Assembly (NCBI GenBank): GCA_030390025.1
Contig: CM059431.1
Span: forward strand, 136,526,001-136,590,000
Length of the DNA: 64,000 bases
Reading direction: 5' to 3'
From: Squalus acanthias
Taxonomy: Eukaryota
Shown here one piece after another: positions 30,901-52,350 of this stretch. Both the position numbers and the translations under genes were made by a program. The number at the start of each line of letters is the position of its first letter. The stretch's first letter is position 1. The notes beneath the pieces were generated by a model, which did no database searches, had not been told where the DNA came from, and saw only the letters and a program-made list of their open reading frames with translations.

Positions 30901-33900
30901 GGACTGAAGAGCAAGACATGGAGAATGATCTGTCTCTAACCGGGAAATGAAGTGCGAGACATGAAGAATGAACTTCCCTAACCGGGGACTGATGAGCGAG
31001 ACATGGAGAATGAACTGTCTCTAACTGGGGACTGAAGAGTGAGACATGGAGAATGAACTGCCTTTAACCAGGAATGAAGAGCGAGAAAAGCCTCTAACCG
31101 GGGACTGATGAGCGAGACATGGAGAATGAACTGCCCCTAACCGTAAACTGAAGAGCGAGACATAGAGAATGAACTGCCTCTAACCGGGGAATGAAGAGCA
31201 AGACATGGAGAATGAACTGTCTCTAACCGTGGATGGATGAGTGAAAAATGGTGGATGAACTGTCTCTAACCGGGGACTGAACAGTGAGACATGGAGAATG
31301 AACTGCCTTAACCGGGGACTGAAGAGTGAGACATGGAGAATGAACTGTCTCTAACCGGGGAATGAAGAGCAAGACATGGAGAATGAAATGCCTGAATCAG
31401 GGGAAAGAAGAGCGAGTTATGGAGAATGAATTGTCTCTAACCGAGGAATGAAGCGCAAGATATGGAGCATGAACTGCCTCAAACTGGGGACTGAAGAGTG
31501 AGATACGGCGAATGAACTGTCTCTAAATGTGGAATGAAGAGCGAGACATGGAGAATGAACTGCCTCTAACCGGGGAGTGAAGAGCGAGACATGAAGAATG
31601 AACTGCCTCTAACAGCGGACTTATGAGCAAGACATGGAAAATGAACTGCCTCTAACCGGGGAATGAAGAGCAAGACATGGAGAATGAACTGTCTCTAACA
31701 GTGGATGGATGAGTGAAAAATGGTGGATGAACTGTCTCTAACCGGGGACTGAAGAGTGAGACATGGAGAATGAACTGTCTCTAACCGGGGGCTGAAGAGC
31801 GAGACATGGAGAATGAACTGCCTCTAACCGGGGACTGAAGAGCGAGACATGGAGAATGAACAGTCTCTAACTGGGGACTGAAGAGTGAGACATGGAGAAT
31901 GAACTGCCTTTAACCAGGAATGAAGAGTGAGACATGGAGAATGAACTGCCTCTATCCGGGGAATGACGAGCGAGACATGGAGAATGAACTGCCTCTATCC
32001 GAGGACTGAAGAGTGCGATATGGAAAATGAACTGCCTCTAATCGGGGACAGAAGAGCGAGACATGGAGAATGAACTGTCTGTAACTGGGAACTGAAGAGT
32101 GAGACATGGAGAATGAACTGTTCTAACCGGGGACTGAAAAGTGAGACATGGAGAATGAACTGTCTCTAACCGGGGAATTAAGAGCGAGACATGAAGAATG
32201 AACTGCCTCTAACAGCGGACTTATGAGCAAGACATGGAAAATGAACTGCCTCTAACCGGGGACTGAAGAGTGAGACATGGAGAATGAACTGTCTCTAACC
32301 GGGGGCTGAAGAGCGAGACATGGAGAATGAACTGCCTCTAACCGGGGACTGAAGAGCGAGACATGGAGAATGAACAGTCTCTAACTGGGGACTGAAGAGT
32401 GAGACATGGAGAATGAACTGCCTTTAACCAGGAATGAAGATCGAGACATGGAGAATGAACTGTCTCTATCCGGGGAATGACGAGCGAGACATGGAGAATG
32501 AACTGCCTCTATCCGAGGACAGAAGAGCGAGACATGGAGAATGAACTGTCTGTAACTGGGAACTGAAGAGTGAGACATGGAGAATGAACTGTTCCAACCG
32601 GGGACTGAAAAGTGAGACATGGAGAATGAACTGTCTCTAACCGGGGAATGAAGAGCAAGACATGGAGAATGAACTGCCTGAATCCGGGGAAAGAAGAGCG
32701 AGACATGGAGAATGAATTGTCTCGAACTGGGGACTGAAGAGTGAGACATGGAGAACGAATTGTCTCTAACCGGGGAATGAAGAGTGAGATATGGAGAATG
32801 AACTGCCTCAAACTGGGGACTGAAGAGTGAGATATGGAGAATGAACTGTCTCTAACTGAGGAATGAAGAGCGAGACATGGAGAATGAACTGCCCCTAACC
32901 GGGGAGTGAAGAGCGAGACATGAAGAATGACTTCCTCTAACAGCGGACTGAGGAGCAAGACATGGAGAATGAACTGCCTCTAACCGGGGAATGAAGAGTG
33001 AGACATGGAGAATGAACTGCCTCTAAGCGGGGAATGAAGAGTGAGACATAGAGAATTAACTGTCTCTAACCGTGGACGGAAGAGTGAAAAATGGAGAATG
33101 AACTGTCTCTAACCGGGAACTGAAGAGTGAGACATGGAGAATGAACTGTCTCTAACCGGGGAATGAAGAGAAAGACATGGAGAATGAACTGTCTCTAAAT
33201 GTGGAATGAAGAGCGAGACATGGAGAATGAACTGCCTCTAACCGGGGAGTGAAGAGCAAGACATGAAGAATGAACTGCCTCTAACAGCGGACTTATGAGC
33301 AAGACATGGAAAATGAACTGCCTCTAACCGGGGAATGAAGAGTGAGACATGGAGAATGAACTGCCTCTAACCGGGGAATGAAGAGCAAGACATGGAGAAT
33401 GAACTGTCTCTAACCGTGGATGGATGAGTGAAAAATGGTGGATGAACTGTCTCTAACCGGGGACTGAAGAGTGAGACATGGAGAATGAACTGCCTTAACC
33501 GGGGACTGAAGAGTGAGACATGGAGAATGAACTGTCTCTAACCGGGGGCTGAAGAGCGAGACCTGGAGAATGAACTGCCTCTAACCGGGGACTGAAGAGC
33601 GAGACATGGAGAATGAACTGTCTCTAACTGGGGACTGAAGAGTGAGACATGGAGAATTAACTGCCTTTAACCAGGAATGAAGAGCGAGACATGGAGAATG
33701 AACTGCCTCCATCCGGGGAATGACGAGCGAGACATGGAGAATGAACTGCCTCTATCCGAGGACTGAAGAGTGCGATATGGAAAATGAACTGCCTCTAATC
33801 GGGGACAGAAGAGCGAGACATGGAGAATGAACTGTCTGTAACCGGGAACTGAAGAGTGAGACATGGAGAATGAACTTTTCTAACCGGGGACTGAAAAGTG

Positions 33901-36900
33901 AGACATGGAGAATGAACTGTCTCTAACCGGGGAATGAAGAGCAAGACATGGAGAATGAACTGCCTGAATCCGGGGAAAGAAGAGCGAGACATGGAGAATG
34001 AATTGTCTCGAACTGGGTACTGAAGAGTGAGACATGGAGAACGAATTGTCTCTAACCGGGGAATGAAGCGCGAGATATGGAGAATGAACTGCCTCAAACT
34101 GGGGACTGAAGAGTGAGATATGGAGAATGAACTGTCTCTAACTGAGGAATGAAGAGCGAGACATGAAGAATGAACTTCCTCGAACAGCGGACTGAAGGGC
34201 AAGACATGGAGAATGAACTGCCTCTAACCGGGGAATGAAGAGTGAGACATGGAGAATGAACTGCCTCTAACCGGGGAATGTAGGGTGAGAGATAGAGAAT
34301 GAACTGTCTCTAACCGTGGACGGAAGAGTGAAAAATGGAGAATGAACTGTCTCTAACCGGGGACTGAAGAGTGAGACATGGAGAATGAACTGCCTCTAAC
34401 CGGGGAATGAAGAGTGAGACTTGGAGAATGAACTGCCTCTAACCGCGGACTGAAGAGCAAGACATGGAGATTGAACTGTCTCTAACCGTGGATGGATGAG
34501 TGAAAAATGGAGAATGAACTGTCTCTAACCGGGGAATGAAGAGTGAGACATGGAGAATGAACTGTCTCTAACCGGGGGCTGAAGAGCGAGACATGGAGAA
34601 TGAACTGCCTCTGAACGGGGACTGAAGAGTGAGACATGCAGAATGAACATCCTTCAGCTAGGGAATGAAGAACTAGACATGGAGAATGAACTGCCTCTGA
34701 ACGGGGACTGAAGAGTGAGACATTCAGAATGAATAGCCTTTTGCCAGGGAATGAAGAAATAGACATGGAGAATGAACTGCCTCAAACCGGGGACTGAAGA
34801 GTGAGACATGGAGAATGAACTGCCTCTAACCGGCGACTGATGAACGAGACATGGAGAATGAACTGCCTCTAACCGTAAACTGAAGAGCGAGACATGGAGA
34901 ATGAACTGCCTCTAACCGTTGGCTGAAGACTGAGACATGGAGAATGAACTGCCTCTAATCGGGGACTGAAGAGCGAGATATTGAGAATGAACTGCCTCTA
35001 ACAGGGGAATTAAGACCGAGGCATGGAGAATGAACTGCCTCTAACCGGGGAAGGAAGAGTGAGACATGGAGAATGAACTGTATTTAACCGGGGACTGCGG
35101 GCCAACACATGGAGAATGAACTGCCTCTAACCGTGGAATGAATCGTGAGACATTGAGAAGGAACTGTCTCTAACCGGGGACTGAAGAGCGAGACATGGAG
35201 AATGAACTGTCTCTAACTGGGGACTGAAGAGAGAGACATTGAGAATGAACTGTCTCTAAACGGGGACTGAAGAGTCGAACATGGAGAATGAACTGCCTCT
35301 AAACGGGGACTGATGAGCGAGACATGGAGAATGAACTGTCTCTAACTGGGGACTGAAGAGTGAGACATGGAGAATGAACTGCCTTTAACCAGGAATCAAG
35401 AGCGAGAAAAGCCTCTAACCGGGGACTGATGAGCGAGACATGGAGAATGAACTGCCCCTAACCGTAAACTGAAGAGCGAGACATGGAGAATGAACTGCCT
35501 CTAACCGGTGGCTGAAGAGAGAGACATGGATAATGAACTGCCTCTAATCGGGGACTGAAGAGCGAGATATTGAGAATGAACTGTCTCTGACTGGGGAATT
35601 AAGACCGAGACATGGAGAATGAACTGCCTCTAATCGGGGACTGAAGAGCGAGATATTGAGAATGAACTGCCTGTAACTGGGGAATTAAGACCAAGACATG
35701 GAGAATGAACTGCCTCTAACTGGGGAAGGAAGAGTGAGACATGGAGAATGAAGTGTATTTAACCGGGGACTGCGGGCCAAGACATGGAGAATAAACTGCC
35801 TCTGAACGGGGACTGAAGAGTGAGACATTCAGAATGAATAGCCTTTTGCCAGCGAATGAAGAAATAGACATGGAGAATGAACTGCCTCTAACTGGGGACT
35901 GAAGAGTGAGACATGGAGGTTAAATTGCCTCTAATTGCGGAGAGAGGTGCGAGAAATGGAGTATTATCTGTCTCCAACTTGTGTCTGAAGAGTGAAGCAT
36001 GGAGAACGAACTTCCGCTAAGTGGAGACCGAAGAGCGTGACACGTGAAATCAACTGTCTATGCGGGGAATGAAGACAGTGACATGGAGAATGAACTGTCT
36101 CGAACCGTGGACGGAAGAGTGAAAAATGGAGAATGAACTGTCTATAACCGGGGACTGAAGAGTGAGACATGGAGAATGAACTGCCTCTAACCGGGGAATG
36201 AAGAGTGAGATTGGAGAATGAACTGCCTCTAACCGCGGACTGAAGAGCAAGACATGGAGAATGATCTGTCTCTAACCGGGAAATGAAGTGCGAGACATGA
36301 AGAATGAACTTCCCTAACCGGGGACTGATGAGCGAGACATGGAGAATGAACTGTCTCTAACTGGGGACTGAAGAGTGAGACATGGAGAATGAACTGCCTT
36401 TAACCAGGAATGAAGAGCGAGAAAAGCCTCTAACCGGGGACTGATGAGCGAGACATGGAGAATGAACTGCCCCTAACCGTAAACTGAAGAGCGAGACATG
36501 GAGAATGAACTGCCTCTAACCGGGGAATGAAGAGCAAGACATGGAGAATGAACTGTCTCTAACCGTGGATGGATGAGTGAAAAATGGTGGATGAACTGTC
36601 TCTAACCGGGGACTGAAGAGTGAGACATGGAGAATGAACTGCCTTAACCGGGGACTGAAGAGTGAGACATGGAGAATGAACTGTCTCTAAGCGGGGGCTG
36701 AAGAGCGAGACCTGGAGAATGAACTGCCTCTAACCGGGGACTGAAGAGCGAGACATGGAGAATGAACTGTCTCTAACTGGGGACTGAAGAGTGAGACATG
36801 GAGAATTAACTGCCTTTAACCAGGAATGAAGAGCGAGACATGGAGAATGAACTGCCTCCATCCGGGGAATGACGAGCGAGACATGGAGAATGAACTGCCT

Positions 36901-38500
36901 CTATCCGAGGACTGAAGAGTGCGATATGGAAAATGAACTCCCTCTAATCGGGGACAGAAGAGCGAGACATGGAGAATGAACTGTCTGTAACCGGGAACTG
37001 AAGAGTGAGACATGGAGAATGAACTTTTCTAACCGGGGACTGAAAAGTGAGACATGGAGAATGAACTGTCTCTAACCGGGGAATGAAGAGCAAGACATGG
37101 AGAATGAACTGCCTGAATCCGGGGAAAGAAGAGCGAGACATGGAGAATTAATTGTCTCGAACTGGGTACTGAAGAGTGAGACATGGAGAACGAATTGTCT
37201 CTAACCGGGGAATGAAGCGCGAGATATGGAGAATGAACTGCCTCAAACTGGGGACTGAAGAGTGAGATATGGAGAATGAACTGTCTCTAACTGAGGAATG
37301 AAGAGCGAGACATGAAGAATGAACTTCCTCTAACAGCGGACTGAAGAGCAAGACATGGAGAATGAACTGCCTCTAACCGGGGAATGAAGAGTGAGACATG
37401 GAGAATGAACTGCCTCTAACCGGGGAATGTAGGGTGAGAGATAGAGAATGAACTGTCTATAACCGTGGACGGAAGAGTGAAAAATGGAGAATGAACTGTC
37501 TCTAACCGGGGACTGAAGAGTGAGACATGGAGAATGAACTGCCTCTAACCGGGGAATGAAGAGTGAGACTTGGAGAATGAACTGCCTCTAACCGCGGACT
37601 GAAGAGCAAGACATGGAGAATGAACTGTCTCTAACCGTGGATGGATGAGTGAAAAATGGAGAATGAACTGTCTCTAACCGGGGAATGAAGAGTGAGACAT
37701 GGAGAATGAACTGTCTCTAACCGGGGGCTGAAGAGCGAGACATGGAGAATGAACTGCCTCTGAACGGGGACTGAAGAGTGAGACATGCAGAATGAACATC
37801 CTTCAGCTAGGGAATGAAGAACTAGACATGGAGAATGAACTGCCTCTGAACGGGGACTGAAGAGTGAGACATTCAGAATGAATAGCCTTTTGCCAGGGAA
37901 TGAAGAAATAGACATGGAGAATGAACTGCCTCAAACCGGGGACTGAAGAGTGAGACATGGAGAATGAACTGCCTCTAACCGGCGACTGATGAACGAGACA
38001 TGGAGAATGAACTGCCTCTAACCGTAAACTGAAGAGCGAGACATGGAGAATGAACTGCCTCTAACCGTTGGCTGAAGACTGAGACATGGAGAATGAACTG
38101 CCTCTAATCGGGGACTGAAGAGCGAGATATTGAGAATGAACTGCCTCTAACAGGGGAATTAAGACCGAGGCATGGAGAATGAACTGCCTCTAACCGGGGA
38201 AGGAAGAGTGAGACATGGAGAATGAACTGTATTTAACCGGGGACTGCGGGCCAACACATGGAGAATGAACTGCCTCTAACCGTGGAATGAATAGTGAGAC
38301 ATTGAGAAGGAACTGTCTCTAACCGGGGACTGAAGAGCGAGACATGGAGAATGAACTGTCTCTAACTGGGGACTGAAGAGAGAGACATTGAGAATGAACT
38401 GTCTCTAAACGGGGACTGAAGAGTCGAACATGGAGAATGAACTGCCTCTAAACGGGGACTGATGAGCGAGACATGGAGAATGAACTGTCTCTAACTGGGG
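21950..38500 (+). repeat. Multi-kb duplicated satellite blocks, family B (units of ~3.1-5.3 kb)
   Basis: ORF-track twins are offset by 4135 (24325/28460, 25011/29146, 26493/30628), 9342 (23039/32381, 24325/33667) and 3149 (33667/36816, 34482/37631). Boundaries are approximate. Confidence 0.85.
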
Positions 38501-39830
38501 ACTGAAGAGCGAGACATGGAGGTTAAATTGCCTCTAATTGCGGAGAGAGGTGCGAGAAATGGAGTATTATCTGTCTCCAACTTGTGTCTGAAGAGTGAAG
38601 CATGGAGAACGAACTTCCGCTAAGTGGAGACCGAAGAGCGTGACACGTGAAATCAACTGTCTATGCGGGGAATGAAGACAGTGACATGGAGAATGAACTG
38701 TCTCGAACCGTGGACGGAAGAGTGAAAAATGGAGAATGAACTGTCTATAACCGGGGACTGAAGAGTGAGACATGGAGAATGAACTGCCTCTAACCGGGGA
38801 ATGAAGAGTGAGACTTGGAGAATGAACTGCCTCTAACCGCGGACTGAAGAGCAAGACATGGAGAATGATCTGTCTCTAACCGGGAAATGAAGTGCGAGAC
38901 ATGAAGAATGAACTTCCCTAACCGGGGACTGAAGAATGAGACATGGAGAAGGAATGGTCTCTAACCGGGGACTGGTGAGAGAGACATGGAGAATGAACTG
39001 TCTCCAACCGGGGAATGAAATGCAAGATATGTAGAATGAACTGTCTTTAACTGGGGATTGAACAGTGAGACATGGAAAATGAACTGTCTCAAACTTTGGA
39101 CAGAAGAGTGAGAAATGGAGAATGAACTGCCTCTAACCGGAGATTGAAGAGTGAGACATGGAGAATGAACTGTCTCTAACTGGGGACTGAAGAGAGAGAC
39201 ATTGAGAATGAACTGTCTCTAAACGGGGACTGAAGAGTCGAACATGGAGAATGAAATGCCTCTAAACGGGGACTGATGAGCGAGACATGGAGAATGAAAT
39301 GTCTCTAACTGGGGACTGAAGAGTGAGACATGGAGAATGAACTGCCTTTAACCAGGAATGAAGAGCGAGAAAAGCCTCTAACCGGGGACTGATGAGCGAG
39401 ACATGGAGAATGAACTGCCCCTAACCGTAAACTGAAGAGCGAGACATGGAGAATGAACTGCCTCTAACCGGTGGCTGAAGAGAGAGACATGGAGAATGAA
39501 CTGCCTCTAATCGGGGACTGAAGAGCGAGATATTGAGAATGAACTGCCTCTAACTGGGGAATTAAGACCGAGACATGGAGAATGAACTGCCTCTAATCGG
39601 GGACTGAAGAGCGAGATATTGAGAATGAACTGCCTGTAACTGGGGAATTAAGACCAAGACATGGAGAATGAACTGCCTCTAACTGGGGAAGGAAGAGTGA
39701 GACATGGAGAATGAAGTGTATTTAACCGGGGACTGCGGGCCAAGACATGGAGAATAAACTGCCTCTGAACGGGGACTGAAGAGTGAGACATTCAGAATGA
39801 ATAGCCTTTTGCCAGCGAATGAAGAAATAG

Positions 39831-39855
39831 ACATAAGAACATAAGAACGTAAGAA
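39831..39855 (-). repeat. CR1 3' terminal microsatellite tail, (TTCTTATG)x3 with one TTCTTACG variant
   Basis: The plus strand reads A CATAAGAA CATAAGAA CGTAAGAA. 8-bp tails are a hallmark of CR1. Confidence 0.92.
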
Positions 39856-40070
39856 ATAGGAGCAGGAGTAGGCCAATCGGCCCCTCGAGCCTGCTCCGCC
39901 ATTCAATAAGATCATGGCTGATCTGATCCTAACCGCCAATCTACTATCTATCACAGAACCATCTCCTGCATCTAACAGAATTGCACACATGAAATAGGAG
40001 CAGAATCAGGCTACACGGTCCCTGGGCCCGCTCCACTACCCACAGGGCCATGACCGATTCGAACCTAGAC
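39853..40070 (-). other. 3'UTR of the full-length CR1, containing two diverged copies of the ~80-nt 3' terminal module
   Basis: GAAATAGGAGCAG starts at both 39853 and 39991 (138 nt apart), and similarity continues for ~80 nt. Confidence 0.8.
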
Positions 40071-43022
40071 TCATGTCCAAATTCCTGCCCGCTCCCCGTA
40101 ACCCTTAATGCCCTTTACTTCTAGGAAACTGTCTATTTCTGTTTTAAATTTAATTAATGTTGTAGCTTCTACAGCTTTTTGTGGCAGCATATTCCATGGA
40201 CCTACCACCCTCTGAGTGAAGTAGTTCCTCCTCATCTCAGTTTTGAAAGAGCAGCCCCTTATTCTAAGACTATGTCCCCTAGTTCTAGTCTCACCCGTCA
40301 TCGGGAACATCCTCCCCGCATCCACCCGATCCAACCCCTTCACAATCTTATATGTTTCAATAAGATCGCCTCTCATTCTTCTGAACTCCAATGAGTAGAG
40401 TCCCAATCTACCCAACCTCTCCTCATATGACCACCCCCTCATCCCCGGGATTAACCGAGTTAACCTTTTTTGCACTGCCTCGAGAGCAAGGATGTCTTTC
40501 CTTAAGTAAGGACACCAAAACTGTATGCAGTATTCCAGGTGCGGTCTCACCAATACCTTGTACAACTGAAGCAATACCTCCCTATTTTTATATTCTATCC
40601 CCCTAGCAATGAAAGCCAACATTCCATTTGCCTTCTTAATCACTTGCTGCACCTGCATACTAACCTTTTGAGTTTCGTGCACCAGGACCTCCAGATCCCT
40701 TTGCACTTCAGTACTCTCCAGTTTCTTGCCATTAAGATAATAAATTGCTCTAGGATTTTTCCTGCCAAAGTGCATCACCTCACACTTTCCAGTGTTGTAT
40801 TCCATCTGTCAAATCTCTGCCCACTTACTTAGCCTGTCTATGTCCCCTTGCAGGCTTTTTATGTCCTCCTCACTCACTACTTTCCCTCCCATCTTTGTAT
40901 CATCTGCAAATTTTGACATGTTACACTTGGTCCCTTCCTCCAAATCGTTAATATAGGTTGTGAAGAGTTGGGGACCCAGCACTGACCCCTGTGGAACACC
41001 ACTAGTTACTGATTGCCAGTCTGAGAATGAACCATTTATCCCAACTCTTTGCTTTCTGTTAGATAGCCAATCCTCTATCCATGCCAGAATATTACCCCCA
41101 ATCCCGTGATTTTTTACCTTAAGCAATAATCTTTTGTGTGGCACCTTGTCAAATGCCTTTTGGAAGTCTAAATACACTACGTCCACTGGTTCCCCTTTAT
41201 CCACTCTATATGTTACTTCCTCAAAGAACTCCAGCAAATTTGTCAAACATGACTTCCCCTTCGTAAAACCATGCTGACTTTGTCCTATTAAATTATGATT
41301 ATCCAAATGTCCTGTTACTGTTTCCTTAATAATGGACTCCAAAGTTTTAGCTACCACAGATGTTAGGCTAACCGGTCTATAGTTACCAGCCTTCTGTCTG
41401 CTGCCCTTTTTAAATAAGGGTGTTACATTAGCAGTTTTCCAGTCTGCCGGGACCTTAGCGGAATCCAGGGAGTTTTGAAAAATTATTACCAATGCATCTA
41501 CAATCCCTACCGCCACTTCCTTCAAGACTCTAGGATGTAAGCCATCAGGTCCAGGTGATTTATCCGCCTTGAGTCCCATTATTTTACCGAGTACCACTTC
41601 CTTAGTGATTTTGATCGTGTTTAGCTCCTCTCCCCCTATAGCCCCCTGTTTGTCCAGTGTTGGGATATTCTTAGTGTCCTCTACTGTAAAGACTGATACA
41701 AAATATTCATTCAGTGTTTTTGCCATCTCCATATTTCCCACCATTAATTTCCCGGTCTCATCCTCTAAGGGACCAACATTTACTTTAGCCACCCTTTTTC
41801 TTTTTATATAACTATAAAAACTCTTACTATCTGTTTTTATATTTTTTGCTAATTTACTTTCATAATCTATCTTCCCTTTCTTAATCAATCTTTTTGTTAT
41901 TTTTTGCTGCCTTTTAAAGTTTTCCCAATCCTCTGTCCTCCCACTAGATTTCGCTACCTTATATGCCCTTGTTTTTAGTCGAATACTATCCTTAATTTCT
42001 TTACTTAGCCACGGATGACTGTCCTTTCTTTTACACCCTTTTCTTTTCAGTGGAATATATTTTTTTTGGATGTTGTAAAATAACTCCTTGAATGTACACC
42101 ACTGATCATGTGTCGTCTTACCCTTTAATCTATTTTCCCAATCCACTCTACTCAATTCCGCTCGCATACCTTCATAGTCTCCTTTATTCAAGCTTAGCAC
42201 GCTTGTTTGAGATCCAACCTTCTCACCCTCTAATTGAATATGGAATTCAACCATGTTATGGTCACTCATTCCAAGGGGATCCTTTACTAGGACATTTTTA
42301 ATTAATCCTGTCTCGTTACACAGGACCAGATCTAAGGTTGCTTGCCCCCTGGTCGGTTCAGTTACATACTGCTCAAGAAACCCATCCCTAATACACTCAA
42401 TGAACTCATCCTCAAGGCAGCCCTGCCCCATTTGATTTGTCCAATTAATATGATAGTTAAAATCCCCCATAATTATAGATGTTCCCTTATTACATGCCTC
42501 AACTATTTCCTGATTGATACTCCGTCCAACAGAGTTGCAACTGTTCGGAGGCCTATAGACTACGCCCACTAGTGTTTTTTTCCCCTTATTATTCCTTATC
42601 TCCACCCAAACTGTTTCATTATCATGATTTTTTGACCCAATATCATTACTCTGTATTACAGTGATTCCTTCCTTTATTAACATAGCCACCCCACCTCCCC
42701 TTCCTTCCTGCCTGTCCTTCCTGATCGTTAAATAACCTGGTATGTTTAATTCCCAGGCATTGTCACCCTGCAGCCATGTTTCTGTAATGGCCACAATATC
42801 ATAACCATATGTAGTTATTTGTGCCATTAACTCGTCTATTTTGTTACGAATGCTACGTGCATTCAGATAGAGAACTTTCAAATATGCTTTGTGGCACTTA
42901 GTTCCTGCTTTTTCACTTTTTACCACTTTACCTTTTACTCCACACACTCTGTCCCTTCCTGCCACGCTCTGATTTGTGATTCCCCTACTGCTACCTATGT
43001 CTATGACCCTCTCTGTTGTCAT
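40071..43022 (-). pseudogene. CR1 ORF2 (APE endonuclease + reverse transcriptase), 983 aa if repaired; split by one in-frame stop into 737 aa (40809-43022) and 244 aa (40071-40805) ORFs
   Basis: EN motifs YLNARS, ITETWL, VYRPP, MGDFN, LDLVL, SDH; RT motifs NYRPVSLTS, QHGF, DFQKAFD, GVPQGSVLGP, FADD. The junction reads ATT TGA CAG ATG in a single frame (WAEI*QMEYN), versus WANVWQMKYN in the second element. Confidence 0.95.
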
Positions 43023-43060
43023 TTTTATTTTTTGCTCTCTTGAAACCTCCCCCCCACTAA

Positions 43061-44017
43061 TTAGTTTAAAGCCCTCTCCACAGCCCTAGTTATTCGATTC
43101 GCCAGGACACTAGTCCCAGCACTGGCCAAGTGAAGTCCGTCCCAACGGAACAGCTCTCTCCTGCCCCAGTACTGGTGCCAGTGTCCCAAGAAGCAAAACC
43201 CATTTTTCCCACACCAGTCTTTGAGCCACGCATTCAACTCCCTGATTTTATTTACCCTAGCCAAATTTGCTCGTGGCTCAGGTAGTAATCCAGAGATTAT
43301 TACCCTCGAGGTTCTGCTTTTTAATTTGGCCCCTAGCTGCTCAAACTCCCTCAGCAGAACCTCTTTCCTTGTCCTATCTATGTCATTGGTACCAACATGG
43401 ACCACGACAACTGGATCCTCCCCCTCCCAGTCCAAGTTTCTCTCCAGCCCAGAGGAGATGTCCTTAACCCTGGCACCGGGCAGGCAACACAGCCTTCGGG
43501 ACTCTCGCTCTTGGCTGCAAAGAACCCTATCTATCCCCCTAATGATACTATCCCCTACCACTACAACATTTCTTTTTACTCCCCCCACTTGAATGGCCCC
43601 CCTTACCACGGTGCTGTGGCCAGGTTGCTCATCCTCCCTGCAGTCCCCGCTCCTATCCACACAGGGAGTAAGAGCCTCGAACCTGTTGGACAAGAGCAAG
43701 GGCTGCGGCTCCTCCAACACTACCTCCTGGATCCCTGTACCTGCCTCACTCGTAGTCACACCTTCCTGTCCCTGACCACGGGCTACTTCTGAATTAGTTA
43801 CTCTAATTGGTGTGACTACCTCCTGAAACACGGAGTCCAGGTAACTCTCCCCCTCCCTGATGTGTCGCAGTGTTTGAAGCTCGGACTCCAGCTCATCAAC
43901 ACGGAGCCGGAGTTCCTCGAGCAGCCAACACTTACTGCAAATGTGTTCACCGTGAACATCAATGGTGTCCACCAGCTCCCACATATTGCAGCAGTAACAC
44001 ATCACCTGCTCTCCCAT
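43061..44017 (-). CDS. CR1 ORF1 protein (318 aa): zinc finger/leucine zipper plus SGNH/GDSL-type esterase domain
   Basis: CYCC...CSKC followed by heptad LEELRLRVDELESELQTL; SNRFEAL motif; SGNH blocks VVVVGDS, LPGA, VHVGTND, DGLHL. It is the first ATG on the element sense strand and has a strong Kozak context (AGAATGG). No disruptions. Confidence 0.95.
   Translation of the reverse strand: MGEQVMCYCCNMWELVDTIDVHGEHICSKCWLLEELRLRVDELESELQTLRHIREGESYLDSVFQEVVTPIRVTNSEVARGQGQEGVTTSEAGTGIQEVVLEEPQPLLLSNRFEALTPCVDRSGDCREDEQPGHSTVVRGAIQVGGVKRNVVVVGDSIIRGIDRVLCSQERESRRLCCLPGARVKDISSGLERNLDWEGEDPVVVVHVGTNDIDRTRKEVLLREFEQLGAKLKSRTSRVIISGLLPEPRANLARVNKIRELNAWLKDWCGKNGFCFLGHWHQYWGRRELFRWDGLHLASAGTSVLANRITRAVERALN
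43064..43070 (-). promoter_or_regulatory. Candidate -1 ribosomal frameshift slippery heptamer T_TTA_AAC at the end of ORF1
   Basis: The sense strand reads GCT TTA AAC TAA. The heptamer is in X_XXY_YYZ phase with ORF1, and the -1 frame is open and in frame with the ORF2 ATG 48 nt downstream of the heptamer start. Confidence 0.55.
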
Positions 44018-44451
44018 TCTATGTAATTAATTAAAAATTTATTATTTACCCTTCAGTTAATTTATGCCCGCAGTCTCTGCTACACCACAGATACCCGAGA
44101 AACTATAAACTATGGAATTGAAGTTTTGTATCAAAAAAAAGAGAAATACTCACCAACCAATCACTTACCTGCTTTCTGGTGACGTCACACTTCGATTTTA
44201 TTTTACCTCTCTCCTGCTCTCGGCTTGGTGAAAGCCTACCTGGTCGCTGCCGCCTTTTACCGCCGCCGCCTCGCCGCTGTTGCTCCACCCAGGTCCGCCG
44301 CCTCTTGTAATAAAACCAACCAATCACTTAGCTGCTTTCTGATTACTTTTTACTTCTTTACACTCACCGGTCTGTTATAGCTCCCGCGCACTTTTTGAAT
44401 CTGCCAAGGTCTCGCGCTCTCCTGGGCTCTCGCTCACCTTTTGAATCTGCC
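44018..44451 (-). promoter_or_regulatory. CR1 5'UTR / putative internal promoter
   Basis: CpG-rich (GCC)n segment ~44244-44302, palindromic CRE GTGACGTCAC at 44179-44188, two AACCAATCA boxes (CCAAT at 44157-44161 and 44320-44324), two pairs of short direct repeats and no upstream ATG. Promoter function is inferred from LINE biology. Confidence 0.65.
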
Positions 44452-47400
44452 GGGGACTGAAGAGTGAGACATGGAGAATGAACTGCCTCTAACTGGGGAC
44501 TGAAGAGCGAGACATGCAGGTTAAATTGCCTCTAATTGCGGAGAGAGGTGCGAGAAATGGAGTATTATCTGTCTCCAACTTGTGTCTGAAGAGTGAAGCA
44601 TGGAGAACGAACTTCCGCTAAGTGGAGACCGAAGAGCGTGACACGTGAAATCAACTGTCTATGCGGGGAATGAAGACAGTGACATGGAGAATGAACTGTC
44701 TCGAACCGTGGACGGAAGAGTGAAAAATGGAGAATGAACTGTCTATAACCGGGGACTGAAGAGTGAGACATGGAGAATGAACTGCCTCTAACCGGGGAAT
44801 GAAGAGTGAGACTTGGAGAATGAACTGCCTCTAACCGCGGACTGAAGAGCAAGACATGGAGAATGATCTGTCTCTAACCGGGAAATGAAGTGCGAGACAT
44901 GAAGAATGAACTTCCCTAACCGGGGACTGAAGAATGAGACATGGAGAAGGAATGGTCTCTAACCGGGGACTGGTGAGAGAGACATGGAGAATGAACTGTC
45001 TCCAACCGGGGAATGAAATGCAAGATATGTAGAATGAACTGTCTTTAACTGGGGATTGAACAGTGAGACATGGAAAATGAACTGTCTCAAACTTTGGACA
45101 GAAGAGTGAGAATGGAGAATGAACTGCCTCTAACCGGAGATTGAAGAGTGAGACATGGAGAATGAACTGTCTCTAACTGGGGACTGAAGAGCGAGACATG
45201 GAAAATGAACTGCCTCAGTCCGGGGAATGAAGAGCCAGACATGGAGAATGAACTGTCTCTAACCGGGCACTGAAGAGTGAGACATGGAGGATGAATTGTC
45301 TCTTACTGGTGACTGAAGAGTAAGACATGGAGATTGATCTGCCTCAATCTGGGGAATGAAGAGTGAGACATGGAGACTGAACTGTCTCTAACCAGAACTG
45401 AAGAGCGAGACATGGAGAATAAACTGCCTCTAACCGTAAACTGAAGAGCGAGACATGGAGAATGAACTGCCTCTAACCGGGGGCTGAAGAGTGAGATATG
45501 GAGAATGAACTATCTCTAATCGGGGACTGAAGAGTGAGTCATGGAGAATGAACTGCATCTAACCGTGGAATGAATAGTGAGACATTGAGAAGGAATTGTC
45601 TCTAACCGGGGACTGAAGGGCGAGACATGGAGAATGAACTGTCTCTACCGCGGACTGAAGAGTGAGTCACGGAGAATGAACTGCCTCAAACCGGGGACTG
45701 AAGAGTGAGACATGGAGAATGAACTGCCTCTAACCGGGGACTGATGAGCGAGACATGGAGAATGAACTGCCTCCAACCGTAAACTGAAGAGCGAGACATG
45801 GAGAATGAACTGCCTCTAACCGGTGGCTGAAGAGAGAGACATGGAGAATGAACTGCCTCTAATCGGGGACTGAAGAGCGAGATATTGAGAATGAACTGCC
45901 TCTAACTGGGGAATTAAGACCGAGACATGGAGAATAAACTGCCTCTAACCGGGGAAGGAAGAGTGAGACATGGAGAATGAACTGTATTTAACCGGGGACT
46001 GCGGGCCAGGACATGGAGAATGAACTGCCTCTAACCGTGGAATGAATAGTGAGACATTGAGAAGGAACTGTCTCTAACCGGGGACTGAAGAGCGAGACAT
46101 GGAGAATGAACTGTCTCTAACTGGGGACTGAAGAGTGAGACATGGAGAATGAATTGCCTTTAACCAGGAATGAAGAGCGAGACATGGAGAATGATAAGCC
46201 TCTAACCGGGGACTGAAGATCGAGACATGGAGAATGAACTGACTCTAACCGGGAACTGAGGAGCGAGACATGGAGAATGAACTGTCTCTACCGGGGACTG
46301 AAGAGCGAAAGACGGAGAATGAACTGCCTCTAACTGGGGAATGAAGAGCGAGACATGAAGAAAGAAATGTCTCTAACCGGCGACAGAAGAGTGAGACATG
46401 GAGAATGAACTGCCTCTATCCGGGGAATGACGAGCGAGACATTGAGAATGAACTGCCTCTATCCGAGGACTGAAGAGTGCGATATGGAAAATGAACTGAC
46501 TCTAATCAGTGACAGAACAGCGAGACATGGAGAATGAACTGTCTCTAACCGGGGACTGAAGAGTGAGACATGGAGAATGAACTGTCTCTAACCGGGGAAT
46601 GAAGAGCAAGACATGGAGAATGAACTGCCTGAATCCGGGGAAAGAAGAGTGAGACATGGAGAATGAATTGTCTCTAACCGGGGAATGAAGCGCGAGATAT
46701 GGAGAATGAACTCCCTCAAACTGGGGACTGAAGAGTGTGATATGGACAATGAACTGTCTCTAACTGTGGAATGAAGAGCGAGAGATGGAGAATGAACTGC
46801 CTCTAACCGGGGAGTGAAGAGCGAGACATGAAGAATGAACTGCCTCTAACAGCGGACTTATGAGCAAGACATGGAAAATGAACTGCCTCTAACCGGGGAA
46901 TGAAGAGTGAGACATGGAGAATGAACTGTCTCTAACCGTGGATGGATGAGTGAAAAATGGTGGATGAACTGTCTCTAACCGGGGACTGAAGAGTGAGACA
47001 TGGAGAATGAACTGTCTCTGAACGGGGACTGAAGAGTGAGACATGCAGAATTAACATCCTTCAGCCAGGGAATGAAGAACTAGACATGAAGAATGAACTG
47101 CCTCTGAACGGGGACTGAAGAGTGAGACATTCAGAATGAATAGCCTTTAGCCAGGGAATGAAGAAATAGACATGGAGAATGAACGGCCTCTAACCGGGGA
47201 CTGAAGAGCGAGACATGAAGATGAACTACCTCTAACTGGGGACTGAAGAGCGAGACATGGAGAATGAACTGCCTCCAACCGGGGATTGAAGAGAGAGACA
47301 TGGAGAATGAACTGTGTCTAACCGGAGACTGAAGTGCGAGACATGAAGAATGAACTGCCTCTAACCGGGGACTGAAGAGCGAGACATGGGGAATGAACTG

Positions 47401-50400
47401 CCTCTAACCGGGGAGTAAAGAGCGAGACATGAAGAATGAACTGCCTCTAACAGCGGACTTATGAGTAAGACATGGAGAATGAACTGCCTCTAACCGTGGA
47501 CGGATGAGTGAAAAATGGAGAATGAACTGTCTCTAACCGGGGACTGAAGAGTGAGACATGGAGAATGAACTGTCTCTAACGGGGGCTGAAGAGCGAGACA
47601 TGGAGAATGAACAGCCTCTGAACGGGGACTGAAGAGTGAGACATTCAGAATGAATAGGATTCAGCCAGGGAATGAAGAAATAGACATGGAGAATGAACTG
47701 GCTCGAACCAGGGACTGAAGAGCGAGATATGGAGAATGAACTGCCTCTAACCGGGGAGTAAAGAGCGAGACATGAAGAATGAACTGCCTCTAACAGCGGA
47801 CTTATGAGCAAGACATGGAGAATGAACTGCCTCTAACCGCGGACTGAAGAGCAAGGCATGGAGAATGAACTGTCTCTAACCGTGGGCGGATGAGTGAAAA
47901 ATGGAGAATGAACTGTCTCTAACCGGGGACTGAAGAGTGAGACATGGAGAATGAACTGTCCCTAACGGGGGCTGAAGAGCGAGACATGGAGAATGAACAG
48001 CCCCTGAACGGGGACTGAAGAGTGAGACATTCAGAATGAATAGGATTTAGCCAGGGAATGAAGAAATAGACATGGAGAATGAACTGCGTCTAACCGGGGA
48101 CTGAAAAGCGAGACATGAAGAATGAACTGCCTCTAACCGGGGTCTGAAAAGTGAGACATGGAGAATGAACTGTCTCTAACTGGGGAATGAAGAGCGGGAC
48201 ATGGAGAATTAACTGTCACTAACTGCGGAATGAAGAGTGAGACATGGAGAATGAACTGCTTCTAACCGGAGGCTGAAGAGCGCGACATGGAGAATGAACA
48301 GCCTCGAACTGGGGACTGAAGAGTGAGATATTGAGAAGGAACTGTCTCTAACCGGGGACTGAAGAGCGAGACAGGGAGAAAGAAATGTCTCTAACCGGCG
48401 ACAGAAGAGTGAGACATGGAGAATGAACTGCCTCTATCCGGGGAATGACGAGCGAGACATGGAGAATGAACTGCCTCTATCCGGGGACTGAAGAGTGCGA
48501 TATGGAAAATGAACTGACTCTAATCAGTGACAGAACAGCGAGACATGGAGAATGAACTGCCTCAATCCGGGGAATGAAGAGTGAGACATGGAGAATGTAC
48601 AGCCTCGAACTGGGGACTGAAGACCGAGACATGGAGAATGAACTGTCTCTAACTGTGGATTGAAGAGTGTGACATGGAGAATGAACTGCCTCTAACCGTG
48701 GACGAATGAGTGAAAGATGGAGAATGAACTCTCTCTAACATGGGACTGAAGAGTGAGACATGGAGAATGAACTGTCTCTAACCGGGGGCTGAAGAGCGAG
48801 ACATGGAAAATGAATTGACTCTTACTGGTGACTGAAGAGTAAGACATGGAGAATGATCTGCCTCAATCCGGGGAATGAAGAGTGAGACATGGAGACTGAA
48901 CTGTCTCTAACAGGGAACTGAAGAGCGAGACATGGAGAATGAACTGCCTCTAACCGTATACTGAAGAACGAGACATGGAGAATGAACTGCCTCTAACCAT
49001 AAACAAATGAGCGAGACATGGAGAATGAATTGCCTTTAACCGTTGGCTGAAGAGAGAGGCATGGAGAATGAACTGCCTCTAATCGGGGACTGAAGACCGA
49101 GACATTGAGAATGAACTGCCTCTAACTGGGGAATTAAGACCGAGACACAGAGAATGAACTGCCTCTAACCGGGGAAGGAAAGTGAGACATGGAGAATGAA
49201 CTGCCTCGAACCGTGGAATGATTAGTGAGATATTGAGAAGGAACTGTCTCTAACCGGGGACTGAAGAGCGAGACAGGGAGAATGAACTGTCTCTAACTGG
49301 GGACTGAAGAGTGAGACATGGAGAATGAACTGTCTCTAACCGGGGACTGAAGAGTCGAACATGGAGAATGAACTGCCTCTAACCGGGGACAGAAGAGCGA
49401 GACATGGAGAATGAACTGCCTTTAACCAGGAATGAAGAGTGAGACATGGAGAATGAACTGCCTTTAACCAGGAATGAAGAGCGAGACATGGAGAATGAAC
49501 TGCCTCTATCCGGGTAATGACGAGAGAGACCTGGAAAATGAACTGCCTCTATCCGAGGACTGAAGAGTGCGATATTGAAAATGAACTGCCTCTAATCGGG
49601 GACAGAAGAGCGAGACATGGAGAATGAACTGTCTGTAACCGGGAACTGAAGAGTGAGACATGGAGAATGAACTGTTCTAACCGGGGACTGAAAAGTGAGA
49701 CATGGAGATTGAACTGTCTCAAACCGGGGAATGAAGAGCAAGACATGGAGAATGAACTGCCTGAATCCGGAGAAAGAAGAGCGAGACATGGAGAATGAAT
49801 TGTCTCGAACTGGGGACTGAAGAGTGAGACATGGAGAACGAATTGTCCCTAACCGGGGAATGAAGCGCGAGACATGGAGAATGAACTGCCTCAAACTGGG
49901 GACTGAAGAGTGAGATATGGAGAATGAACTGTCTCTAACTGAGGAATGAAGAGCGAGACATGGAGAATGAACTACCTCTAACCGGGGAGTGAAGAGCGAG
50001 ACATGAAGAATGAAGTTCCTCTAACAGCGGACTGAAGAGCAAGACATGGAGAATGAACTGCCTCTAACCGGGGAATGAAGAGTGAGACATGGAGAATGAA
50101 CTGCCTCTAACCGGGGAATGAAGAGTGAGACATGGAGAATGAACTGTCTTAACCGTGGACGGAAGAGTGAAAAATGGAGAATGTACTGTCTCTAACCGGG
50201 GACTGAAGAGTGAGACATGGAGAATGAACTGCCTCTAACCGGGGAATGAAGAATGAGACTTGGAGAATGAACTGCCTCTAACCGTGGATTGAAGAGCAAG
50301 ACATGGAGAATGAACTGTCTCTAACCATGGACGGATGAGTGAAAAATGGAGAATGAACTGTCTCTAAACGGGGACTGAAGAGTGAGACATGGAGAATGGA

Positions 50401-50842
50401 CTGTCTCTAAACGGAGGCTTAAGAGCGAGACATGGAGAATGAACTGCGTCTAAACGGGGACTGAAGAGCGAGACATGAAGAATGAACTGTGTCTAACCGG
50501 GGACTGAAGAATGAGACATGGAGAATGAACTGTGTCTAACCGGGGACTGAAGAGCGAGACATGGAGAATGAACTGCCTCAAACCGGGGACTGAAGAATGA
50601 GACATGGAGAATGAACTGCCACTATCCGGGGACTGATGAGAGAGACATGGAGAATGAACTGTCTCTAACCGGGGACTGAAGAGTGAGACATGAAGAATGA
50701 ACTGTCTCTAACCGGGGACTGAAGAGTGAGACATGGAGAATGAACTGACTCTAACTATGGAATGAAGAGCGAGACATGGAGAATGAACTGTGTCTAACCG
50801 GGGACTGAAGAGTGACACATGAAGAAAGAACTGCCTCTAACC
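44450..50842 (+). repeat. 43-bp tandem satellite array, middle segment between the two LINEs
   Basis: Same monomer and orientation. Resumes at CCGGGGACTGAAGAG (44450) and stops at CTGCCTCTAACC (50842). Confidence 0.97.
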
Positions 50843-52255
50843 ATTTTGCAACATTCCTTAGACTCTGGATCAGTTCCGATGGAGTGGAGGGTGGCCAATG
50901 TAACCCCTCTTTTTAAAAAAGGAGGGAGGGAGAAAGCAGGGAATTATAGACCGGTCAGCCTGACATCGGTCGTGGGTAAAATGATGGAAGCAATTATTAA
51001 AGATGTCATAACAGACCATTTGGAAAGTGGCGACATGATAGGTCCAAGTCAGCATGGATTTGTGAAAGGGAAATCATGCTTGACAAATCTTCTGGAAATT
51101 TTTGAGGATGTTTCCAATAGGGTGGACAGGGGGGAACCAGTAGATGTGGTGTATTTGGACTTTCAGAAGGCCTTCGACAAGGTCCCACACAAGAGTTTGG
51201 TGAGCAAAGTTAAAGCACATGGGATTGGGGGTAATGTGTTGACGTGGATTGAGAACTGGTTGGCACACAGGAAACAAAGAGTAGGAGTAAATGGGTATTT
51301 TTCAGAATGGCAGGCAGTGACCAGCGGGGTACCGCAGGGTTCGGTGCTGGGACCCCAGCTGTTTACATTATATATTAATGATTTGGACGAAGGGATTAAA
51401 TGTAATATCTCCAAATTTGCGGATGACACTAAATTGGGAGGCAGTGTGTACAATGAGGAGGATGCTAGGAGGCTACAGAGTGACTTGGACAGGTTGGGTG
51501 AATGGGCAAATGTATGGCAGATGAAGTACAATGTGGATAAATGTGAGGTTATCCACTTTGGTGGTAAAAATAGAGAGGCTGACTATTACCTGAATGGTGG
51601 CAGATTAGGGAAAGGGGAGTTGCAACGAGACCTGGGCGTCATGGTACATCACTCACTGAAGGTGGGAATGCAAGTGCAGCAGGCAGTCAAGAAAGCAAAC
51701 GGAATGATGGCCTTCATAGCAAGGGGATTTGAGTACAGGAGTAGGGAGGTGAAGCTGCAGTTGTACAGGGCCTTGGTGAGGCCACACCTGGAGTATTGTG
51801 CGCAGTTTTGGTCTCCTAACTTAAGGAAGGACATTCTTGCTATTGAGGGAGTGCAGCGAAGGTTCACTAGATTGATTCCTGGGATGGCCGGACTGACATA
51901 TCAAGAAAGATTGGGTCAACTGAACTTGTATCCTCTGGAGTTCAGAAGAATGAGGGGGGATCTAATAGAGACATTTAAAATCCTGACTGGTTTAGACAAA
52001 TTAGATGCGGGCAGAATGTTCCCAATGTTAGGGAAAACTAGAACCAGGGGTCACAGTCTAAGGATTAAGGGGAACCCATTTAAGACTGACCTGAGGAGGA
52101 ACTTCTTCACCCAGAGAGTGGTGAATCTATGGAATTCTCTTCCACAGAAGGTTGTTGAGGCCAGTTCGCTAAATATATTCAAAAGGGAGTTAGATATAAC
52201 ACTCACAACAAGGGGGATCAATGGGTATGGCGAGAAAGCAGGAATGGGGTACTGA
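50819..52255 (+). CDS. Truncated CR1 ORF2 reverse transcriptase ORF (478 aa), lacking the endonuclease; first 8 codons (MKKELPLT) are satellite-derived
   Basis: NYRPVSLTS, QHGFVKGKSC, DFQKAFDKVPH, GVPQGSVLGP, KFADDTK and the C-terminal TRGH/RNFFTQRVVNLWNSLP motifs, without stops or frameshifts. Expression is unknown. Confidence 0.8.
   Translation: MKKELPLTILQHSLDSGSVPMEWRVANVTPLFKKGGREKAGNYRPVSLTSVVGKMMEAIIKDVITDHLESGDMIGPSQHGFVKGKSCLTNLLEIFEDVSNRVDRGEPVDVVYLDFQKAFDKVPHKSLVSKVKAHGIGGNVLTWIENWLAHRKQRVGVNGYFSEWQAVTSGVPQGSVLGPQLFTLYINDLDEGIKCNISKFADDTKLGGSVYNEEDARRLQSDLDRLGEWANVWQMKYNVDKCEVIHFGGKNREADYYLNGGRLGKGELQRDLGVMVHHSLKVGMQVQQAVKKANGMMAFIARGFEYRSREVKLQLYRALVRPHLEYCAQFWSPNLRKDILAIEGVQRRFTRLIPGMAGLTYQERLGQLNLYPLEFRRMRGDLIETFKILTGLDKLDAGRMFPMLGKTRTRGHSLRIKGNPFKTDLRRNFFTQRVVNLWNSLPQKVVEASSLNIFKRELDITLTTRGINGYGEKAGMGY
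50838..50842 (+). other. Target-site duplication TAACC (left copy; right copy at 52351-52355)
   Basis: CTGCCTC-TAACC|LINE|TAACC-GGGGACTG. Removing the LINE and one TAACC restores a perfect monomer. Confidence 0.8.
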
Positions 52256-52350
52256 GGTAGCATGTTCAGAAATGAACGCATTGAATGGCGGTGCAGGCTC
52301 GAAGGACCAAATGGTCTACTCCTGTACCTATTTTCTATGTTTCTATGTTT
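50843..52350 (+). mobile_element. 5'-truncated CR1-clade LINE (1508 bp), different subfamily from the minus-strand element
   Basis: RT and C-terminal ORF2 sequence, 3'UTR with hairpins and (TTTCTATG)2 tail; flanked by TAACC direct repeats. Confidence 0.96.
52332..52350 (+). repeat. CR1 3' terminal microsatellite tail (TTTCTATG)x2 + TTT
   Basis: Read directly: TTTCTATG TTTCTATG TTT, then satellite TAACCGGGG. Confidence 0.9.

Follow-up and report, generated by a model that had tools for sequence, protein, structure and literature searches.

The stretch of Squalus acanthias DNA considered here (the window) comprises 64,000 nucleotides (nt), positions 136,526,001 to 136,590,000 of contig CM059431.1 in assembly GCA_030390025.1, and carries a CR1-clade long interspersed nuclear element (LINE) on its minus strand. 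The junction between the two open reading frames of this element, ORF1 and ORF2, is very probably a -1 programmed frameshift site, a reading to which a probability of about 0.87 is given. This reading was first put forward in an original prediction made from the letters of the window alone, and its overall interpretation appears supported by the sequence comparisons described below.

-1 frameshifting at UUUAAAC is textbook knowledge in viruses. At the CR1 junction, a minority of ribosomes would slip back one base at U_UUA_AAC, fusing the ORF1 protein (ORF1p) to the endonuclease and reverse transcriptase (RT) encoded by ORF2. The tRNA-Leu and tRNA-Asn would presumably re-pair from UUA and AAC to UUU and AAA, and the final ORF1 residues, …RALN, would continue as LISGG…. 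Most ribosomes would stop at the end of ORF1 and release free ORF1p, giving a high ORF1p:ORF2p ratio, as for Gag to Gag-Pol, while the ORF1p part of the fusion would hold the enzyme within ORF1p multimers bound to the RNA that encodes it. A block at a downstream run of G residues, either G-quadruplex-like or protein-bound, may aid slippage together with slow termination at the adjacent stop.

Sequence constraint at the ORF1/ORF2 junction

The features on which this reading depends are listed below by their positions in the window.

43061..44017, minus strand: ORF1, 318 amino acids (aa): Cys-rich N-terminus, SGNH esterase, final Ala-Leu-Asn-stop
43064..43070, minus strand: slippery heptamer U_UUA_AAC, in ORF1 phase
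43061..43063, minus strand: ORF1 stop immediately after the heptamer, TAA here and TAG in relatives
43049..43055, minus strand: G7 run, 8 nt past the heptamer, a candidate stimulator that reads Gly-Gly in the -1 frame
42864..43064, minus strand: 67-codon open -1 linker between the slip site and the first Asn of the endonuclease
43020..43022, minus strand: in-frame ATG of ORF2 in the window family
40812..43085, minus strand: ORF2 frame (-1 relative to ORF1), APE endonuclease and RT
40809..40811, minus strand: premature in-frame TGA in ORF2, just past the RT core

ORF1 ends GCT TTA AAC TAA, with T_TTA_AAC at 43070-43064 (minus strand) in X_XXY_YYZ phase. The -1 frame opens past a TAG at 43088-43086 and is then free of stops from 43085 to 40812, running into ORF2, whose own ATG (43022-43020) lies 38 nt past the ORF1 stop. 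The heptamer, its phase, the TAG, the open -1 frame and the ATG of ORF2 had been described in the original prediction and were reproduced. A fusion of ~1315 aa had also been proposed. This length would hold if the TGA at 40811-40809 were absent, but the product of the window copy would be 1069 aa (318 + 751) because of that in-frame stop. Only one canonical in-phase heptamer is found in ORF1, at the junction itself, compared with five in the 758 codons of the ORF2 frame. As it is the sole in-phase heptamer of ORF1 and is conserved in distant families, its presence there appears to go beyond chance.

To obtain relatives, metagenomes were scanned for the esterase motif [VI][VL]VH[VI]G[TA]N[DN], a pattern independent of the junction, and 43 loci were recovered. 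Twelve are of the window-element type, ten of them with a readable junction; the 33 loci outside the heptamer count comprise two CR1-type loci that run off their contigs and 31 other esterase-bearing sequences. T_TTA_AAC is intact in seven of the ten readable junctions (L001-L005, L007 and L009), followed by TAG in six and by TAT, which looks like a lost stop, in one. The remaining three junctions (L006, L025 and L028) are each one change away from the heptamer, and all three loci are broken elsewhere too. Four relatives (L001, L002, L003 and L005) keep T_TTA_AAC plus the stop at an ORF1 identity of 28-45%.

These four relatives and the window element form a codon control set of five families, with 28-71% identity across the final 150 residues of ORF1, in which the expected synonymous invariance of the heptamer was borne out. 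The terminal Leu is TTA and the terminal Asn is AAC in all five families, and the codon before them always ends in T while encoding Ala, His, Tyr, His and Cys. Synonymous sites elsewhere are saturated, with a single codon kept at only 1 of the 26 other residues that are invariant in all five. Given fixed TTA and AAC codons in five of five and varying codons at 25 of the 26 other invariant residues, the constraint at the end of ORF1 appears to act on the RNA.

ORF2 also lies in the -1 frame in all five families, as anticipated, behind an open linker that varies in length. Between the heptamer and the endonuclease Asn, this linker is free of stops over 67 codons in the window and over 33, 37, 42, and 42 codons in the relatives; the other two frames across the same linkers contain 1-9 stops. 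In L003 the frame remains open for 961 codons, through the RT. The original prediction had cautioned that ORF2 possesses its own ATG. This caution stands for the window family but not for L001, L002, L003, and L005, whose linkers contain no ATG before the endonuclease Asn, and the linkers of L001 and L005 are also devoid of CTG, GTG, TTG, and ACG. An alignment-based structure search matched the L1 endonuclease and equated the Asn at the end of the linker, located at 42863-42861 in the window, with residue 14 of the human L1 enzyme; a PDB search with the single L003 endonuclease protein gave no match. N14 of the L1 endonuclease is required for activity, and a start at the first Met would remove the first strand of the domain.

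The same ending is widespread among ORF1 proteins. Of 200 homologues, 146 were counted and 54 were dropped for being shorter than 140 aa or having no esterase end motif 15-40 residues before their end. The C-terminus is Leu-Asn in 82, Gly-Asn in 11, and Lys-Asn in two, with Lys-Asn shortly before the end in a further eight, Gly/Phe-Phe-X in four, and other endings in 39. In a quick version of the protein tree, the clade that holds the named vertebrate proteins ends in Leu-Asn in 54 of 61 rows, and two more clades of unnamed rows end in the same way. Hosts of Leu-Asn proteins include, by name, sharks, rays, sturgeon, eel, mormyrid fish, turtles, and a swallow. The protein ends 25-39 residues after the start of the catalytic DGLHL motif, and with this varying distance Leu-Asn tracks the stop rather than the fold.

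The residue before the ending differs between these classes. Among 58 distinct Leu-Asn tails, it is encoded only by pyrimidine-ending codons in 22 and only by purine-ending codons in one, whereas the corresponding counts are zero and ten among 20 distinct Gly-Asn or Lys-Asn tails (Fisher p 1.2e-7, which is overstated owing to relatedness among the rows and to classes defined post hoc). Such a switch fits what the heptamer would require. The Gly-Asn and Lys-Asn ends, judged from protein sequence alone, would likewise fit G_GGA_AAC and A_AAA_AAC.

A search for longer proteins gave four matches. One of these, P0059, comes from a single contig and joins esterase, endonuclease and RT in frame, and its esterase and endonuclease are not separated by any Met; it was set aside as support for a fusion, as it may reflect a one-base mutation or an assembly error. 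Another, P0060, carries its esterase on the C-terminal side of a different endonuclease-RT and looks like an insertion chimera.

Variation within the family was assessed by aligning four public sequencing runs to 42860-43300 at 80% likeness, using contigs that are uninformative on strand or level; only seven reads aligned from the raw-read run X21. No differences fall in 43044-43075 among 40 of the 86 difference rows. Third-position variation is strong just upstream, affecting 934,561 of 1,305,365 depth at 43079 in run X1 and 311,832 of 1,270,750 depth at 43076. A number of contigs (54 from X1, four from X17) match the window up to and including the heptamer and stop and then diverge into G-rich sequence. 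The divergence points are at 43060 (X1 and X17) and 43068 (X1), and the consensus of X17 has four G-tracts. Upstream of the junction, a hairpin is present at 43120-43101, beside which other subfamilies diverge.

Possible stimulation of slippage and competing routes to ORF2

Several observations weigh against a frameshift at this junction. The five DNA-backed families amount to three independent lineages, because L002, L003, and L005 are 60-71% alike. The -1 linker is broken by indels or stops in L004, L006, L007, L009, and L025, which are read as decayed copies, and the sequence of L028 stops short of the endonuclease. On the protein side, one 12-row esterase clade has none of the Leu-Asn, Gly-Asn, or Lys-Asn endings, the search queries themselves held the terminal Leu-Asn and slightly favoured such matches, and the Gly-Asn and Lys-Asn classes are known from protein alone and were grouped after being seen. 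Scans gave no DNA for these two classes: a prokaryote genome scan returned one distant match only, and of four viral-contig scans, three contained no CR1 junction and the fourth gave one distant locus. Within the family, the absence of differences in 43044-43075 covers 40 of 86 rows, and one X8 contig reads TTA AGC TAA. The window family, moreover, offers another way into ORF2, with its in-frame ATG 38 nt past the stop and UGGGA motifs 55 and 81 nt upstream.

The downstream region adds to these points. No stable hairpin, pseudoknot, or intramolecular quadruplex was found downstream of the heptamer, with fold z-scores of -1.4 to +1.8 (one of four window folds reached a z of -2.0, at only -9.5 kcal/mol). 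The consensus fold of the alignment reaches only -2 kcal/mol, the best duplexes of a long-range partner search fall within the shuffled range, and an Rfam search of the junction region returned 0 matches. The absence of a clear pseudoknot had been noted as a caveat from the outset and stands after all four approaches.

Where a pseudoknot or hairpin would usually begin, 5-9 nt downstream, the place is occupied by the conserved G-run. A run of five to seven G residues starts 8-10 nt past the heptamer in all eight sequences tested, compared with an overall rate of 0.7-3 such runs per kb. A lone run of six or seven G residues cannot form a standard intramolecular quadruplex, and none is predicted; four G-tracts occur in some shark subfamilies only. 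The G-tracts of the diverging subfamilies could form a G-quadruplex, and these subfamilies would be the best natural material in which to test for a stimulator. A stop codon adjoining the slip site can itself aid slippage, as in Rous sarcoma virus. Published accounts describe a 3' structural stimulator as usual but not universal at -1 sites (PMC5009743, PMC3919603). Quadruplexes located 3' of UUUAAAC raise -1 shifting, which peaked near 7% at spacers of 6-8 nt (PMC3919603). The G-run 8-10 nt downstream, acting with the adjacent stop, is a likely stimulator at about even odds, and this is the weakest step of the proposal. The G-run may have a linker role in the protein, since it reads Gly-Gly in the -1 frame.

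The best surviving alternative, though an unlikely one, is that ORF2 is translated by termination-reinitiation or AUG-independent initiation, as in L1 and SART1, with the heptamer serving as a termination context, an RNA-binding site, or in some other role. Coupled translation is used by SART1 and L1 (PMC2881922; PMC3894237), and initiation of L1 ORF2 has been described as AUG-independent (PMC5009743). The ATG and UGGGA motifs of the window family point the same way, and reinitiation might run in parallel there. In the relatives these elements are largely missing. No ATG precedes the endonuclease Asn in L001, L002, L003, and L005, nor does any common near-cognate codon in L001 and L005. A termination upstream ribosome-binding site (TURBS) is described as having UGGGA at 40-90 nt before the stop (PMC3542737); this motif is present in the window and L001 but missing in six of eight sequences (L002-L005, L007, and L009). 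The start codon of such a system lies near the stop, whereas the window ATG is 38 nt away and four relatives have none. Reinitiation also leaves unexplained the fixed -1 phase, the stop-free linker, the locked TTA AAC codons, and the apparent swap among shifty heptamers.

It is considerably less probable that Leu-Asn is kept for the esterase fold, with its codons and the -1 phase reflecting shared descent or codon bias. The protein rows are indeed related by descent, and since TTA makes up ~34% of Leu codons and AAC ~42% of Asn codons in these elements, a single copy with TTA AAC would be unremarkable. This explanation is largely refuted by the codon control, in which synonymous sites elsewhere are saturated (1/26 fixed). 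Given X-Leu-Asn, the joint chance for five families would be ~2e-6 if they were independent, an assumption that holds only in part. In addition, Leu-Asn stands at a varying distance from the catalytic motif, and the residue before it is free in chemistry yet constrained in its third base. Least probable of all is the production of ORF2 from spliced or processed RNA, with TAG acting as splice acceptor, or through slippage of transcription within the G-run: the junctions of relatives do contain CTAG, with a homopolymer run close by, but the window stop is TAA behind purine-rich sequence with no pyrimidine tract, an indel in the G-run would fall 3' of the ORF1 stop and cannot join the frames, and no joint at the junction is listed in the public-run contigs, which cannot prove absence.

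The element and its satellite setting

The remaining features of the element are as follows.

39830..44449, minus strand: full-length CR1-clade LINE within a 43-bp satellite array (ends approximate)
44018..44449, minus strand: 5' untranslated region (UTR) of the LINE; the satellite picks up again at 44450
40071..40808, minus strand: C-terminal 245 codons of ORF2, severed by the premature TGA
39830..40070, minus strand: 3' end, two related 3' UTR tails in tandem, with short repeats last

On its architecture and its repeat-type 3' end, the element is probably a CR1-clade LINE rather than a member of L2 or RTEX. The esterase domain of ORF1 matches Lipase_GDSL_2 over residues 154-301 (E 2.9e-10), and ORF2 matches Exo_endo_phos followed by RVT_1, with L1 endonuclease structures also matched. 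The nearest named relatives of ORF1 are from stingray (77%) and catshark (67%), in keeping with a host among the cartilaginous fishes. The premature TGA at 40811-40809 takes the position of a Trp in P0059, and because of this stop the window copy has probably lost autonomous mobility.

No clean target-site duplication was seen at the ends of the LINE. Its 5' end (44389-44449, minus strand) has a short direct repeat, GGCAGATTCAAAAAG-like, in two copies ~46 nt apart. The tandem 3' UTR tails are ~70% alike over 78 nt. The second resembles a tail common to shark LINEs and SINEs (short interspersed nuclear elements), which we take to be that named HER1/HE1; this likeness suggests that the 3' end of another element was captured or that the insertion adjoined one.

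The surrounding 43-bp satellite spans 30075-39801 and 44450-55000 in the part scanned and has an internal sub-period of 21-22 bp. Composition suggests that it fills the whole window, broken once, at ~39830-44449, by the stretch of opposite strand bias that holds the LINE. Recurring spacings of ~5.3 kb and ~3.1 kb among its sub-arrays are signs of higher-order repeats, and a 102-codon stretch at 38567-38875 reappears across the LINE at 44565-44873 with an identical translation.

Comparison with known systems

A frameshift at this junction, if true, would answer how CR1 elements make their RT. In the chicken genome no repeats are more abundant than CR1 elements (PMC11835228), whose relatives are also found in sharks, fish, and turtles. 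The working CR1 ORF2 product would be a fusion of about 1300 aa, and in many families the endonuclease would be truncated in ORF2 annotations starting from the first Met. The contrast in pol expression between retroviruses and elements without long terminal repeats (LTRs) would weaken, and a natural frameshift stimulator that lacks a pseudoknot would be open to study. As the signal consists of seven bases and can be mutated directly, the question is testable.

A broader and more tentative proposal, held at slightly less than even confidence, is that esterase-bearing CR1-type LINEs across animals make their RT as a Gag-Pol-like ORF1p fusion by recoding. Separately, in three other esterase-ORF1 lineages (L011, L026, and L041/L042), a single UGA followed by C stands between the esterase and an endonuclease in the same frame. 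These stops lie at position 1273 in L011, 1326 in L026, 2053 in L041, and 2106 in L042, in the contexts UGA-CUU, UGA-CUA, and UGA-CCA, and in L011 a second stop intervenes ahead of the endonuclease. The L026 context, UGA-CUA, is among those listed for readthrough (PMC3542737). This arrangement looks like stop-codon readthrough to the same kind of fusion, a lead only and one noticed post hoc.

The window element belongs with the esterase-ORF1p CR1 LINEs, which combine an esterase ORF1, an APE-RT ORF2, and a repeat-type 3' end (PMC3905857, PMC11835228). Published accounts of CR1 describe two separate ORFs, with no mention of a frameshift or fusion in the excerpts available (PMC3905857, PMC11835228), and a proposal of CR1 frameshifting is likewise absent from those of PMC5006619 and PMC4837594. 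A literature search found no such proposal; the founding CR1 papers and Repbase were outside its reach, and an earlier proposal is possible.

Other LINEs face the same problem of making little ORF2p from a bicistronic RNA, and their ORF2 translation is treated as open, with reinitiation, internal ribosome entry sites, and 2A discussed (PMC3894237, PMC2881922). L1 and SART1 make free ORF2p (PMC3894237, PMC2881922), whereas the CR1 signal would predict a covalent ORF1p-ORF2p fusion. The original prediction had set CR1 against well-studied LINEs (L1 and SART1) that make ORF2 by reinitiation or translational coupling. As a contrast with LINEs at large it has an exception in Dictyostelium TRE5-A and TRE3-A, whose ORF2 is stated in a review to require a -1 frameshift (PMC5911963). 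Like CR1, these are two-ORF APE-type LINEs; they differ in element family and in their amoeba host. Frameshifting has also been mentioned for HeT-A gag (PMC5009743).

The closest parallels to the CR1 junction are the viral -1 sites, namely the coronavirus ORF1a/1b site U_UUA_AAC and retroviral gag-pol (PMC5009743). The likeness extends to the heptamer, its phase, a downstream ORF in the -1 frame, and the order of a structural-type protein first and a polymerase second (PMC5009743). The relatives of the window element appear to use other heptamers named among the most shifty in the same source (PMC5009743). CR1 differs from the viral systems in being a non-LTR element, in having a 0-frame stop that abuts the heptamer, and in having a G-run where no pseudoknot or hairpin was found. 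The junction would present a known mechanism in a clade of elements for which no report of it was found. Precedents exist for stimulators other than pseudoknots, such as quadruplexes (PMC3919603) and an arterivirus site at which PCBP and nsp1beta act (PMC5009743). No binding protein is known for the CR1 G-run, which resembles these stimulators in being a short motif at spacer distance from the slip site.

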